Numbered from the stretch's first letter, positions 60,586-64,000 are shown. The stretch: DNA of 64,000 nt from Acholeplasmatales bacterium (GCA_003539625.1 DPOU01000003.1:21590-85589), one strand, 5' to 3'. Notes: a model not told the origin generated them from the letters alone. Translations and numbers: made by a program.

Positions 60586-60649
60586 AAAGAGAACTAAATT
60601 ACCGCAGTTCCCATAGGGAATTTTTCGGTAAGTCGCAGGGTTCAGAGTT

Positions 60650-60685
60650 AGGCGTGGCGTGATGCCACGCCTTTTCTCTTGCTTT
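60650..60685 (+). terminator. GC-rich hairpin + T-tract at the element end
   Basis: AGGCGTGGC-gtgat-GCCACGCCT is followed by TTTCTCTTGCTTTTG. The T-tract is on the plus strand, so it would stop read-through from the dtxR-like gene into the element. Confidence 0.6.
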
Positions 60686-60687
60686 TG

Positions 60688-62361
60688 TTATCGGTTGTTT
60701 TTATCAAGTTCGTCGCCCCAAAGTGGTCTGTCGATTGCCCCGACGAAGTTGTAAACGATTTCTACGGTCTGTCTGTAATGTCCGTCAACCTTCGTTTTCT
60801 CGTGGACGATAACTTTGTCGATAAACGAACGAAGGATTTCGGGTGTGAGTTTTTCAAAACTGCTGTACTTATGAATAAGCATCATAAAATCGAGGATTTT
60901 ATCGTCTTGCTCTTTTGCTTTCTCGATTTCCGATTTCAGAGTTTTTACCCGTTCTTTCAGCGCGCTTTGCTCCGATTCGTATGTATCGCTCATTTTTAAG
61001 TACCGTTCTTCGGAAATTTTCCCTTCGACCTTGTCCTCGTAAAGGCTCTCAATGATTTTATCGAGTTTTTCGATGCGTTCTTCCGAAGTTTCGATTTCTT
61101 TCAGATTCTCTTTGATCTCCTTTTTCGTTTTCGATTCTGTGCTGCTTTGCAAGGTCTGCAAAAATCTCTCGTTTTGACTTTTAGCAAACTGAATCGTGCG
61201 GCGCAAGTCGTCCTGTATAAGCGCCGTTATCGCTTTTACGGTTATCTGATGAGAAGTGCAAGTTCGTTTCAAGGTTTTTCGATAAGATGAACAATTAAAG
61301 TATTCCGATTGCTTTGTCGTCGAACAACGGCAAAGATACATTTTCTTTCCGCAGTCTGCGCAGTACAGCATACCCGACAGCGGACTCATTTCGCCCATAT
61401 CGGTAGGACGGCGCTTGCTTTGTCGTATTTTTTGAACGGTTTCAAACGTCTGCTTATCGATAATCGCTTCCTGAGTGTTCTCAAAGATTACCCAGTCGTC
61501 TTTCGGCGTATAAATACGTCGTTTTGACTTGTAAGACTTCTTAAATGACTTGAAATTAACGGTACAACCCGTGTACGCCAAGTTCTCAAGAATACCAACA
61601 ACAGTTTTCTGCTCCCATATTTCCGAATCTTCCCGAATTTTTTGCGAAGTAGGTAAGCCGTTCTTATGACAATATACGACGGGAGTATCTACGCCGCGCT
61701 CGGTGAGTATTCTTGCGATCTGCGTCGGACCGTAACCTTGAATACAGAGTTTGAAGATTTCTTTTACGATTTCCGCGCCTTTCTCGTCTATAATCCATTT
61801 CTCTTTGTTTTCGGGATCTTTCTTATAGCCGAGCGGCGGTATGCTCGTAATGTGCTTGCCGGCATTGCCTTTTGCGCGGACAACTGCTTTAATCTTCTTA
61901 CTGCAATCTTTGGCATACATCTCGTTCAGAATGTTCTTGAACGGCGTAATATCGTCGTCGGGATTGGTTTCGCTGTCCACTTGGTCGTAAATAGCAATAA
62001 ACCTTACGTCGGCTTCCGCAAAATAATATTTCGTGTAATATCCCACGAGAATATGGTCTCTGCCAAACCTTGACATATCCTTGACGATTACGGTAGAAAT
62101 TCTTCCGTTGTCCACGTCGTCCATCATTCGATTGAAATCGGGGCGGTCGAAGTTACTGCCCGAATACCCGTCGTCCACGTAGAATTTTACGTTGCGCAAA
62201 CGGTTTTCGTCCGCATACTTTTGCAATAGCATTTTCTGATTGCGGATGCTGTTTGAATCGCCGTCCAGATCGTCGTCGCAGGAAAGCCTGCAATAGCAAG
62301 CCGTCCATTGTTCTTCTGTGCTTTTTGCTTTCTTATTTTTAATTGTAGGTTGCAAATTCAT
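60688..62361 (-). CDS. large serine recombinase
   Basis: N-terminal resolvase-type catalytic domain (ACYCRLSCDDD...SIRNQ...STVIVKDMSRFGRD), a recombinase domain, a Cys cluster (YCADCGKKMYLCRC...NCSSYRK...CTSH) and a C-terminal coiled coil. GGGAGG lies 9 nt upstream. Confidence 0.9.
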   Translation of the reverse strand: MNLQPTIKNKKAKSTEEQWTACYCRLSCDDDLDGDSNSIRNQKMLLQKYADENRLRNVKFYVDDGYSGSNFDRPDFNRMMDDVDNGRISTVIVKDMSRFGRDHILVGYYTKYYFAEADVRFIAIYDQVDSETNPDDDITPFKNILNEMYAKDCSKKIKAVVRAKGNAGKHITSIPPLGYKKDPENKEKWIIDEKGAEIVKEIFKLCIQGYGPTQIARILTERGVDTPVVYCHKNGLPTSQKIREDSEIWEQKTVVGILENLAYTGCTVNFKSFKKSYKSKRRIYTPKDDWVIFENTQEAIIDKQTFETVQKIRQSKRRPTDMGEMSPLSGMLYCADCGKKMYLCRCSTTKQSEYFNCSSYRKTLKRTCTSHQITVKAITALIQDDLRRTIQFAKSQNERFLQTLQSSTESKTKKEIKENLKEIETSEERIEKLDKIIESLYEDKVEGKISEERYLKMSDTYESEQSALKERVKTLKSEIEKAKEQDDKILDFMMLIHKYSSFEKLTPEILRSFIDKVIVHEKTKVDGHYRQTVEIVYNFVGAIDRPLWGDELDKNNR

Positions 62362-62537
62362 TGTTTATTACCTCCCGAATTGCAACTTTCAAACGATGAC
62401 TTATGAGATAACCGAACGGGTGGCTTTAAGGCTTCGTCAATATTCCGTTCGATTATTCTTTTTGTAATGTCGAACGCCGTGTTGTCGGCATCCGTCCTTT
62501 CACGGGAGATAACGGTGTAAACCGTGTTCCCGATCAC
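62358..62537 (-). CDS. short ORF translationally coupled to the recombinase (TnpW-like?)
   Basis: Own translation from GTG 62537 (AAGGAG 10 nt upstream) gives (M)IGNTVYTVISRERTDADNTAFDITKRIIERNIDEALKPPVRLSHKSSFESCNSGGNKQ*. The stop TGA overlaps the recombinase ATG (ATGA). The same frame stays open upstream to beyond 62700 without any ATG, GTG or TTG, so the true start is uncertain. Confidence 0.45.
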   Translation of the reverse strand: MIGNTVYTVISRERTDADNTAFDITKRIIERNIDEALKPPVRLSHKSSFESCNSGGNKQ

Positions 62538-62701
62538 TTTTTCGCGGCTCCTTATATATTCGCCGTTCGGTTGTTTCAGATAATAGGTGAATATACTTGC
62601 CGTGGGTTTTGTTGTTTTAATGTTTTTCGCTTGGTTTTCCGTAATTTTAATCTCCTTATCATTGATTTCAATTACGCAAAACGGCAGGAAATAAGTTACG
62701 G

Positions 62702-62932
62702 CTACTGATTTAACGTTCCGTTTTCTTTCTTTTTCTTCAAAGCCTCGTATCCCTCTTTGATGAGACGGACTTTGGTAATATCGTTTTCTTCGAGAAATTC
62801 GTTTATTTCATTAAAAAGCGCTCTCGGTATCATCGTGCCGAAGTTTCCGCTTGCCTGTTTTCTCTTTTCCTTATTCTTCTCTTCATACTTCCTGCGCGTT
62901 TTGCGTACAGGCGTATCTTCCTTTCTTTCCAT
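62702..62932 (-). CDS. small basic protein, putative ribbon-helix-helix DNA-binding protein
   Basis: A Lys/Arg-rich N-terminal tail is followed by a strand-helix-helix pattern (FGTMIPRALFNEINEFLEENDITKVRLIKEGYEAL). GGAGG lies upstream. Either GTG 62935 or ATG 62932 is a possible start. Confidence 0.45.
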   Translation of the reverse strand: MERKEDTPVRKTRRKYEEKNKEKRKQASGNFGTMIPRALFNEINEFLEENDITKVRLIKEGYEALKKKKENGTLNQ

Positions 62933-62973
62933 CACGCTTAACCTCCGAATTATTCATTCTCGTATTGATACAT

Positions 62974-63002
62974 ATTTTATCCTGTTCCGGATAAAAAGTC
63001 AA
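62974..63002 (-). promoter_or_regulatory. sigma-A type promoter inside the element
   Basis: Minus strand has TTGACT, a 17-nt spacer, then TAAAAT between the relaxase stop and the 77-aa ORF. Confidence 0.4.
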
Positions 63003-63040
63003 GCTCTGATGGGCAACAGAGGGAAGATAGCCCTTAGTTT

Positions 63041-64000
63041 TTACTTATAATTGTTGCTTTTGTTGTGCTTTTCGTATTCTCTCCGTTCTTCTTCGATTTC
63101 CCGTTCAATCTGTTGTAGCCGAGGGATCCGCATCGTTACGTCCGGCGTGAACAGTGAGAGAACGGAATCGAAAAAGCTTCCGATTGTTTTCGGTTTGCCT
63201 TGGCTTATGCGCCTGTACTCCGTAGGGTTAGTTCTTGCAAGCGTTTTCCCGACGCGGGCATAATGCGAATCGCTGTCTTTTTCCCGTTGCAAAGTTTCCG
63301 CTTTCCTTGCGTATTCAAGCGTTTCGCCCATAGAGCGGTCAAGCCGTTTCGTCAGATCTTTATTCTCCGCCGTTAAGGCAACGACCTGTTCTTGCAACTG
63401 TCCGCGCTTTCGGGGAATATCTCCGCTTTTCGCCTCGGCGAGTGCGTCTGCGTAAACCTGATTTTCTTGCCGTATCGCTTCGGCTTGTTCTATTATCTTT
63501 TTCGCCTTGAACTCTGCCGTGGAAAGATGTTTTGCCTGACTGCCTTCTTTGCCACGTTGTAAACCGTACTTCTTTCCGACCGCGCTGTAAAAGTCCGTTT
63601 GCAACTGTTGTAGTTTTTGTTTATCGAATAATTCTTTACTGCACAATCTTCCGTCCTTTGTAATCGGCACAAGATTCAGGTGCATATGCGGCGTGGTTTC
63701 GTCCACGTGGATTACCGCCGATATTACGTTTTTCATTCCGTACCTTTCTTCAAAAAATTTGGTACAGTCCGAAAAGAAGTTGTATTGCGATAATTTCGAT
63801 AGTCCGTCAAAGAACGCTCTATCTGCGCCCACAACAAAAGAGTTCATCACGACTGCGTCTTTGCGCGGAGAGAGAATTAACTGAGTTATTCGCTTATTGA
63901 TGAACTCGGTATACGACCCGTCGGGGCCGTGCATATGATAGTTGTACTTTGTCTTTGAGCTGTCTATCTGCGGATTGTCCGACTTGTAATTCTCATCCCG
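63041..64000 (-). CDS. MobV-family (Mob/Pre) relaxase, N-terminus beyond the window
   Basis: HVDETTPHMHLNLVPI matches the MobV HxDExxPHxH motif, and there is a long coiled-coil C-terminus. My translation of 63935..64000 (…RDENYKSDNPQIDSSKTKYNYH-MHGPDG) shows the frame is open to the window edge, so ATG 63934 is not the start. Confidence 0.85.
   Translation of the reverse strand, partial: RDENYKSDNPQIDSSKTKYNYHMHGPDGSYTEFINKRITQLILSPRKDAVVMNSFVVGADRAFFDGLSKLSQYNFFSDCTKFFEERYGMKNVISAVIHVDETTPHMHLNLVPITKDGRLCSKELFDKQKLQQLQTDFYSAVGKKYGLQRGKEGSQAKHLSTAEFKAKKIIEQAEAIRQENQVYADALAEAKSGDIPRKRGQLQEQVVALTAENKDLTKRLDRSMGETLEYARKAETLQREKDSDSHYARVGKTLARTNPTEYRRISQGKPKTIGSFFDSVLSLFTPDVTMRIPRLQQIEREIEEERREYEKHNKSNNYK

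Follow-up and report, generated by a model that had tools for sequence, protein, structure and literature searches.

Integrative and mobilisable elements (IMEs) are defined by an integrase or excisionase of their own, a relaxase and/or an origin of transfer (oriT), the lack of mating-pore genes and mobilisation in trans (PMC5704250). The closest described relatives of the element considered here are Tn4451 and Tn4453, from Clostridium perfringens and from C. difficile, which carry chloramphenicol resistance; the gene order and the GA crossover core of Tn4451 follow published accounts (PMC5704250, PMC3158075). The DUF4368 clade of large serine recombinases (TndX-like; Cp36, Pc01 and Enc9) is multi-targeting, and one example uses a TT core with A/T-rich outer flanks (Durrant et al. 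2022, PMC10083194). In a 64,000-nucleotide stretch of DNA from an Acholeplasmatales bacterium (GCA_003539625.1 DPOU01000003.1:21590-85589; hereafter the window), positions 60599-64000 very probably constitute the recombinase-proximal half of an IME of about 6.4 kb and of the Tn4451 kind, with a DUF4368 recombinase that targets terminator loops, MobV mobilisation and an RlmA(II)-like methyltransferase as its usual cargo. Its host is an Acholeplasmatales-like gut bacterium, uncultured and belonging to Bacilli; the protein of the neighboring gene rplT bears the name 'Acholeplasmatales bacterium' in NCBI metagenome-assembled genomes.

Boundaries, empty site and target sites

A first-pass annotation, made from the window sequence alone, had placed a composition break near 60600, with CpG-rich DNA of foreign origin beyond it, and all of this was borne out. 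The computed G+C content is 0.304 across positions 1-60597 and 0.438 across 60598-64000, and the sliding-window analysis which the annotation had proposed confirms the discontinuity, the 240 windows of 500 nt in the host part (starts 1-59751; standard deviation 0.034) reaching a maximum of 0.392 against 0.438 overall beyond the break, where 500-nt windows range from 0.38 to 0.51. The observed/expected ratio of CpG rises from 0.72 in the host part to 1.67 in the element part, and its density from 16 to 80 per kb. The break is abrupt, and identity between the window and the host sequence of the empty site stops at the TT of positions 60599-60600. Protein domains, the empty site and identical copies in other hosts also bear out the foreign origin.

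A search for the empty site in relatives, likewise proposed by the annotation, was made by look-up with the protein of the neighboring repressor gene and recovered eight conspecific contigs (L091, L092, L094-096 and L098-100; L numbers denote the loci compared). In these, the repressor gene, 35 nt and rplT follow one another, and the site reads TATATAAAAAGAGAACTAAA-TT-ACTTAGTTCTCCTTTTTTATTTATTT, with the core portion ...AAAAAGAGAACTAAA-TT-ACTTAGTTCTCCTTTTTT... The occupied site reads ...GAGAACTAAA-TT-ACCGCAGTTCCC... at the junction in the window and ...GGGAAGTGCGCT-TT-ACTTAGTTCTCC... at the other junction, and together they rebuild the empty site exactly. At the four sites of the identical element, no dinucleotide other than TT is shared by the empty site and the two junctions. 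The crossover is TT (60599..60600; AA on the element coding strand), the only consistent solution, with no other duplication. In front of this recombinase-proximal junction, the bidirectional terminator of the host has left one arm of its stem (GAGAACTAAA, 60588..60598, with an A-run before it), the left one, which forms the left half of attB. An assembly chimera, in which a higher-GC element was joined to a low-GC contig, is scarcely credible: the data are metagenomic and the contig of the window ends inside the element where variants differ, but the same junction is found in at least nine assemblies that are independent of one another and differ in sample and assembler (L003-5, L007, L093, L097, L102, L105 and L120), several of them span both junctions on contigs of 100 kb to 1.3 Mb, and the junctions rebuild the empty site exactly.

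Comparison of ten contigs delimits a block of 6,392-6,396 bp, more than 99.7% identical and placed in at least four genomic contexts. Its order is the cargo end, about 0.8 kb of gene fragments, a gene for a 277-aa methyltransferase, 1.3 kb of non-coding DNA, the relaxase gene mob, an open reading frame (ORF) of 77 aa, a small ORF, the recombinase gene and the recombinase end. Besides the recombinase and relaxase, the 6.4 kb contain only the methyltransferase and small ORFs, and no genes for a mating pore (type IV secretion system, T4SS). The two ends are imperfect inverted repeats, AGCGCACTTCCCATAGGGATTTTT at the cargo end and AAAAATTCCCTATGGGAACTGCGGT at the recombinase end, where the terminal inverted repeat ACCGCAGTTCCCATAGGGAATTTTT (60601..60625) is the recombinase-proximal half of the attachment site and its end motif is conserved in relatives. 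Just inside, an inward-facing terminator-like hairpin, AGGCGTGGCGTGATGCCACGCCT followed by TTTCTCTTGC (60650..60682, plus strand; 10 pairs, 7 of them G-C, in the terminator scan of L003), has an inward-facing counterpart at the other end (L003 5837-5859), and both could replace the terminator split by the insertion; the one in the window would stop host transcripts from running into the element.

The 3,400 visible bases of the element show no difference from the copies in L001, L002, L003, L009 and L103. L003, L004, L005 and L007 belong to the species of the window (99.4% identity over 13.3 kb) and carry the element at the same rplT/repressor locus. L001 and L002, whose hosts are probably one 'Clostridium sp.' species, represent two distinct sites and L009 is a Eubacteriales metagenome-assembled genome. 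The identical copies outside the window's site belong to no fewer than two further host species, both of them Clostridia. The exact recombinase occurs at the sites of the window, L001, L002 and L009, the copy in L103 (match over about 6.4 kb) marks a fifth site, and recombinases 92-94% identical add those of L012-L015; in the assembly collection, the exact sequence is present in 597 blocks. Because no difference separates the copies over 3.4 kb, the transfer is considered very recent, and the locus offers a clean example of such a transfer between classes (Clostridia and Acholeplasmatales-like Bacilli) in the human gut. Recombinase relatives 60-94% identical are encoded in 80 species-representative genomes, nearly all of them from uncultured Christensenellales or other gut Clostridia, and the higher G+C content of the element therefore fits its source clade. 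Close relatives have the backbone in common from about L003 7500 to the end and different DNA to the left of it. A megablast search of the visible 3.4 kb against plasmids returned no match, and tblastn against plasmids only distant relatives (at most 52% for the recombinase and at most 52% for the methyltransferase). Two arrangements among the loci are recorded here as side observations. In L117 (11473-17011) the rplT side of the host is followed by the element, but the recombinase side carries DUF8091, ABC-3, ZnuA and FUR genes; the contig represents either a further insertion site, in a related strain, or two copies that have rearranged with each other. In L014, an inverted second recombinase-end motif lies at about 9528, some 760 nt past the end of the related element, and may belong to a neighboring second element.

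The empty site of the window species is a perfect hairpin, GAGAACTAA / TTAGTTCTC, with an A-run and a T-run at its flanks, and was scored as terminator-like on both strands. Complete attB sequences were reconstructed for eight sites, four for the window element and four for relatives with defined ends, a number that two looser end searches among relatives left unchanged. All eight show an A-run, a stem, a loop with the AA/TT core, a stem and a T-run, with folding energies of -12 to -24 kcal/mol and z scores of -3.2 to -8 relative to shuffles. In a larger sample, TTTT was found at +5 to +24 in 54 of 61 distinct recombinase-side flanks, as opposed to 16.6% of control positions in the same loci, and at least three of the seven exceptional flanks are spurious motif matches. 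The T-run is preceded by a short G+C-rich segment and begins 7-12 nt from the core. The joined element ends have the same layout as the target, on a longer scale. This target rule, a terminator loop with an AA/TT core, is clear and apparently undescribed; no paper linking serine recombinases with terminator targeting was found in the literature. It explains how a promiscuous serine recombinase can insert without gene damage, and may aid the prediction or design of landing sites for multi-targeting recombinases in genome engineering.

In the species of the window, the locus exists in three states: empty, occupied by the IME, or occupied by an IS3-family element. The last of these, present in other strains (HTH_Tnp_1 and rve domains; about 9385-11060 in L123 and L126), is likewise inserted into the rplT/repressor terminator loop and is flanked by a 3-bp TAG repeat. 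The repressor gene itself, a host gene outside the element, encodes a DtxR/MntR-like metal-dependent protein of 124 aa (60211..60585, plus strand; Pfam Fe_dep_repress and Fe_dep_repr_C). Elsewhere in the host part, an FMN riboswitch was detected at 42644-42756 on the minus strand (Rfam RF00050, 109.9 bits), and the Rfam scan of the window and L003 returned no RNA family inside the element.

Recombinase, relaxase and small backbone genes

The four co-oriented minus-strand genes which the first-pass annotation had proposed are all real, and all backbone ORFs are intact. The last of them, reading toward the element end and the junction as described there, encodes a large serine recombinase of 557 aa (60688..62361, minus strand) of the TndX/TnpX type, with Pfam matches to Resolvase (E 2e-21), Recombinase (4e-21), Zn_ribbon_recom (1.5e-11) and, at its C-terminus, DUF4368 (PF14287, 2e-21, residues 478-544). 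Its top match in the PDB is the catalytic domain of TnpX (2MHC, E 2.1e-33), with 57 of 114 residues identical (50%) and S27 aligned to S15 of TnpX. The relaxase call proved equally sound: the MobV gene (63041..64000, minus strand; L003 8311-9321 in full) encodes 336 aa, the first 17 codons being past the window end, contains HVDETTPHMHLNLVP and matches Pfam Mob_Pre (1.2e-47) and the NCBIfam MobV model (E 2.6e-48, 164.6 bits against a cutoff of 100). With these, every one of the four families named for the suggested profile search (Resolvase, Recombinase, Zn_ribbon_recom and Mob_Pre) was matched. Large serine recombinases are also common as phage integrases and the NCBIfam CcrB and XisF models match the element weakly, yet a prophage remnant or phage satellite with a phage-type serine integrase is highly improbable in a 6.4 kb element that has no phage genes, contains MobV and an oriT-like segment and encodes a recombinase of the transposon-associated DUF4368/TnpX-like clade. 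The megablast search against plasmids was empty, as noted above, and the joined ends are absent from IMG/VR, the element itself not having been searched against a phage collection.

The short ORF overlaps the recombinase start, as the annotation had stated, and is a conserved gene that probably begins at an ATT. The overlap is an ATGA, by which it is translationally coupled to the recombinase, and the gene (62358..62645, minus strand) encodes a protein (...IGNTVYTVI...TAFDITKRLIERN...CNSGGNKQ) that is conserved in relatives whose recombinases are only 60-70% identical. Because its sequence is kept across such diverged relatives, this is a real gene and not a chance ORF. From the GTG chosen by the ORF finder, at 62537, it would have 59 aa (62358-62537), but conservation reaches about 35 codons further upstream, and in several relatives the frame has no ATG, GTG or TTG at all. 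In the window and in the relatives L032 and L043, an AAGGAG is followed, 6 nt on, by an ATT (62645-62643 in the window); in the remaining relatives an ATT has other spacings, and two have none there. This pattern suggests that the gene starts at ATT and encodes a protein of about 95 aa. Pfam gave no match for the small ORF, to TnpW or to any other family.

A basic protein of 76/77 aa (62702..62935, minus strand), of unassigned function, is always encoded between mob and the small ORF; its family comprises 295 homologous clusters, none of them named. The ORF was correctly described in the first-pass annotation, but the ribbon-helix-helix (RHH) label given to it is without support: no Pfam match was obtained at E up to 10, the best PDB profile hits were unrelated proteins (E 0.87), and a Foldseek search of its AlphaFold model against the PDB gave no match. 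That model (pLDDT 79) consists of a long helix, an extended segment at residues 29-37 (GNFGTMIPR) and two helices, an order which is merely compatible with an RHH dimer and does not demonstrate one. A fusion of this ORF and the small ORF by frameshift was considered and rejected, the overlap of the frames not being conserved.

Upstream of mob, by about 100-160 nt, 14 relatives carry AAGT(G/A)TAGC(C/A)CACTATACTT, a stem with compensatory changes, and then GTGGGCTCTGCGAGGC. The first part of this conserved segment, found at L003 8153-8200 or about 150-200 nt past the window end, is the inverted repeat AAGTATAG/CTATACTT. It resembles the oriT of pMV158 and is regarded here as the putative oriT of the element. 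Before it, 180-243 nt upstream of mob, a mini-ORF (L003 8066-8098, about 270-300 nt past the window end) was observed in 17 of 26 loci with a mob gene and encodes peptides such as MKNYLQFRPP, MKNYHHYHPP and MTIRPP. The terminal (R/H)-P-P-stop is kept despite changes of synonymous codons and of the stop codon, even where the Mob proteins are 29-46% identical, and the mini-ORF looks like a ribosome-arrest leader peptide. The first features of the backbone (L003 7531-7587) are a palindrome of 7 bp, ATGTCCAcgattaTGGACAT, and, after it, a promoter close to the consensus (TTGACA-17-TAAAAT with TG). It is at this start (L003 7531) that the variants of the element cease to be homologous, and it may therefore be a hot spot for cargo exchange. 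On the other side, in the cargo module, a second sequence resembling a MobV oriT nick region, GTGTGTCTATACTT (L003 about 7400-7420), may be a vestige from a plasmid in which the cargo originated.

Based on these features, we hypothesize that the DUF4368-type recombinase would excise the element as a circle and re-insert it by a 2-bp AA/TT crossover, preferably into the hairpin loop of an intrinsic terminator (A-run, stem, loop, stem, T-run), a dyad-symmetric target outside coding sequence. In the circular form, the MobV relaxase would nick the pMV158-like oriT just upstream of its own gene, and a conjugative element resident in the same cell would provide the mating pore for its transfer, the IME being mobilised in trans. 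The copy of the window lies in the bidirectional terminator between the DtxR-like repressor gene and rplT and was acquired recently.

Cargo of the common variant and of the window copy

The first-pass annotation had located cargo to the right of 64000, and that of the common variant indeed lies past the window end; the novel cargo system which it suggested is there, however, usually a single RlmA(II)-like methyltransferase accompanied by gene fragments, in an element of only about 6.4 kb. The 277-aa protein has Zn_ribbon_RlmA and S-adenosylmethionine (SAM)-methyltransferase domains and matches the NCBIfam RlmA model NF008300 (E 3.4e-46) and E. coli RlmA(I) (PDB 1P91, 2.8e-28). It is 47-48% identical to 282-aa streptococcal proteins and 47% to P0209 of S. 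mitis, whose N-terminus, MNTNLKP, agrees with the amino acids specified by the primer with which pneumococcal rlmAII was cloned (PMC4605293). By these comparisons its nearest group is that of the Gram-positive RlmA(II)/TlrB enzymes, which methylate G748, and most likely it too methylates G748 of 23S rRNA and lowers susceptibility to tylosin-type macrolides. In B. subtilis, G748 methylation by RlmA(II)/TlrB alone gives tylosin resistance, and tlrB is induced via a leader peptide ending in R/K-x-R/K (PMC6851288). In the element, the leader of the methyltransferase gene (L003 5885-6176) contains a strong promoter, TTGAAT-17-TATAAT with TG, and a 10-bp hairpin, GCGAGTTATG/CATAACTCGC, and an upstream ORF ending in ...ELRRKNK overlaps the methyltransferase start by ATGA and recalls the tlrB leaders. 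An inducible control is plausible. Two scraps were also noted in the cargo module: a piece of 53 aa that aligns with positions 1-47 of the 85 in DUF6809 (E 5e-7; L003 5528-5689), and an apparent N-terminal winged-helix part of a truncated regulator, an HTH gene (L003 5967-6176).

The exact methyltransferase is present on at least 1000 contigs, with C. difficile and Clostridium sp. M62/1 among the named hosts, and an 88% identical variant occurs in S. equi subsp. zooepidemicus. Most copies of the element have a cargo of this RlmA(II)/TlrB-like kind, and at the site of the window the methyltransferase was found in all nine conspecific assemblies whose sequence runs through the cargo (L003-5, L007, L109, L111, L112, L114 and L115). 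A competing explanation of some weight, although we doubt it, is that the enzyme is a housekeeping-type RNA methyltransferase, acting for example in translation tuning or ketolide susceptibility, and that the backbone alone drives the spread. In its favor, the protein falls under every curated NCBIfam cutoff, in S. pneumoniae RlmA(II) methylation raises telithromycin binding and does not protect (PMC4605293), and relatives of the element with defined ends carry unrelated cargo (a GNAT acetyltransferase, an MBL-fold protein with DUF4180, a DpnII-like nuclease, surface-repeat proteins). Against this, presence on so many contigs in several genera is a pattern typical of selected resistance genes, the identity of 47% is to true RlmA(II) orthologues, TlrB suffices for resistance in B. 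subtilis, and the K-N-K ORF overlapping the start, with the nearby 10-bp hairpin, resembles the tlrB leader peptides. We retain the reading of a well-defined, recently spreading mobilisable transposon whose usual cargo is probably a resistance gene. Curated antimicrobial resistance models do not call this common cargo, and if tylosin-type resistance is true, a circulating resistance gene is absent from surveillance lists. In the literature, an 'RlmA(II) methyltransferase' is listed among the genes shared by chicken and pig gut isolates (PMC10782964); that listing apart, no named element or mobile rlmA(II) gene was found.

The rightward extension proposed in the annotation reached the second junction in the conspecific contigs, but the contig of the window, L107, stops sooner. 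It is 100% identical to window positions 47267-64000, extends 954 nt further and agrees with the common variant as far as L003 7531, the boundary between backbone and cargo, 829 bases past the window end.

Several points weigh against the reading proposed here. The circular joint, GGGAACTGCGGT-AA-AGCGCACTTCCC, was found neither in the fetched loci nor in IMG/VR, and the activity of the element is consequently deduced from its distribution; a helper conjugative element was not identified in this host. The preference for terminators could be a by-product of dyad symmetry and A/T tracts and not terminator recognition. The methyltransferase scores 158 bits against the equivalog cutoff of 303 of NF008300 and, with the models of the actinomycete G748 enzymes, 91 against 620 (ChrB), 82 against 550 (Erm(32)) and 68 against 625 (MyrA). 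Finally, the last 125 nt of L107 diverge before the contig ends, which places the cargo and the right junction of this copy outside the sequence. In the divergent DNA there are a sequence like a promoter, AGGAGG and, reading outward, a gene that begins MKKVELRTMEQ, and L105, from another sample with the same host junction, has the same divergent sequence over 52 nt. As the length of these overhangs is close to that of one k-mer (L107 being a k127 contig), we infer that those samples contain the divergent DNA in repeated form and that assembly broke off at this point. It was not found elsewhere, either by searching its 61-nt unique part against IMG/VR or by a blastn comparison of all 125 nt with plasmid and phage sequences, and look-ups with the Mob protein, a 351-aa Mob variant and rplT did not recover the cargo of the window copy.

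The missing circular joint, together with the gene fragments of the cargo module (the DUF6809 piece and the truncated HTH gene), would also agree with a fixed remnant, decayed and immobile. Such a remnant is very unlikely, given that all backbone ORFs are intact, that 3,400 nt show no difference between hosts and sites, that the locus is polymorphic within the species, empty or occupied, and that one 'Clostridium sp.' species carries the element at two different sites.

Comparison with known systems

The combination of a serine recombinase, MobV, size and an empty site bears out the Tn4451-like or small-IME class proposed in the first-pass annotation, although not strict membership of the Tn4451 family; no description of this element was found in the literature. 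With respect to the definition of an IME (PMC5704250), integration is represented by the 557-aa recombinase and the precise junctions, and mobilisation without a T4SS by MobV and the oriT-like repeat. The likeness to Tn4451 and Tn4453 extends to a size of about 6 kb, a TnpX-type recombinase with a catalytic domain 50% identical, a TnpZ-type Mob/Pre (MobV) relaxase whose gene has an oriT (RSA) site upstream, a small ORF that separates mob from the recombinase gene, a crossover of 2 bp, several targets and one resistance-type cargo gene. In contrast, the core is AA/TT in all eight complete sites and GA in Tn4451, the 557-aa recombinase contains DUF4368, and its gene is last in the element whereas it is first, at the left end, in Tn4451. 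In addition, the scanned ORFs have no Pfam match to TnpV, TnpY or TnpW, the cargo is an rRNA methyltransferase and not catP/catD, and the targets are terminator loops. Circularisation of Tn4451 creates a promoter for the recombinase, but no sigma-70-like promoter was found across the reconstructed circular joint.

The predicted cargo enzyme resembles the TlrB/RlmA(II) m1G748 methyltransferases of S. fradiae, S. pneumoniae and B. subtilis (YxjB) in its N-terminal Zn ribbon and class I SAM methyltransferase fold, in the identity with the S. mitis orthologue mentioned above and in a possible leader ORF with an R/K-x-R/K ending. It differs from them in that its gene is mobile and identical across genera, while known RlmA(II) genes are chromosomal or in producer clusters, and in that the protein, whose activity is predicted, lies below the curated family cutoffs.

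As for the recombinase, the DUF4368 domain, the many attB sites per recombinase cluster and the TT core are those of the clade described by Durrant et al., and its cluster (at least 90% identity) is found at more than three unrelated targets, by which that clade is recognized as multi-targeting. The word 'terminator', however, does not occur in that paper (PMC10083194, 0 occurrences), whereas the sites of the element are hairpins with a G+C-rich stem between core and T-run. We put forward, tentatively and at a little short of even chances, a broader hypothesis: that the DUF4368 recombinase clade, abundant in gut Christensenellales and other Clostridia, evolved the use of intrinsic-terminator loops as a generic safe-harbour site, reading architecture and not a fixed sequence, bringing its own inward terminators and inserting across host classes, and that one such element is now carrying through the human gut microbiota a macrolide-resistance gene of the RlmA(II) type that is unlisted and possibly inducible.

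Class C group II introns and REP-targeting insertion sequence (IS) elements also insert at terminator or palindromic hairpins, sparing genes. Together with the local IS3-family copy, they share with the element of the window the kind of site and the avoidance of gene disruption, but their chemistry, retrohoming or DDE transposition, is unrelated to that of the serine recombinase, whose substrate here is double-stranded DNA of dyad symmetry. The element is of a known kind, a Tn4451-like IME with a multi-targeting DUF4368 recombinase, and its targeting of terminator loops is the fresh point.

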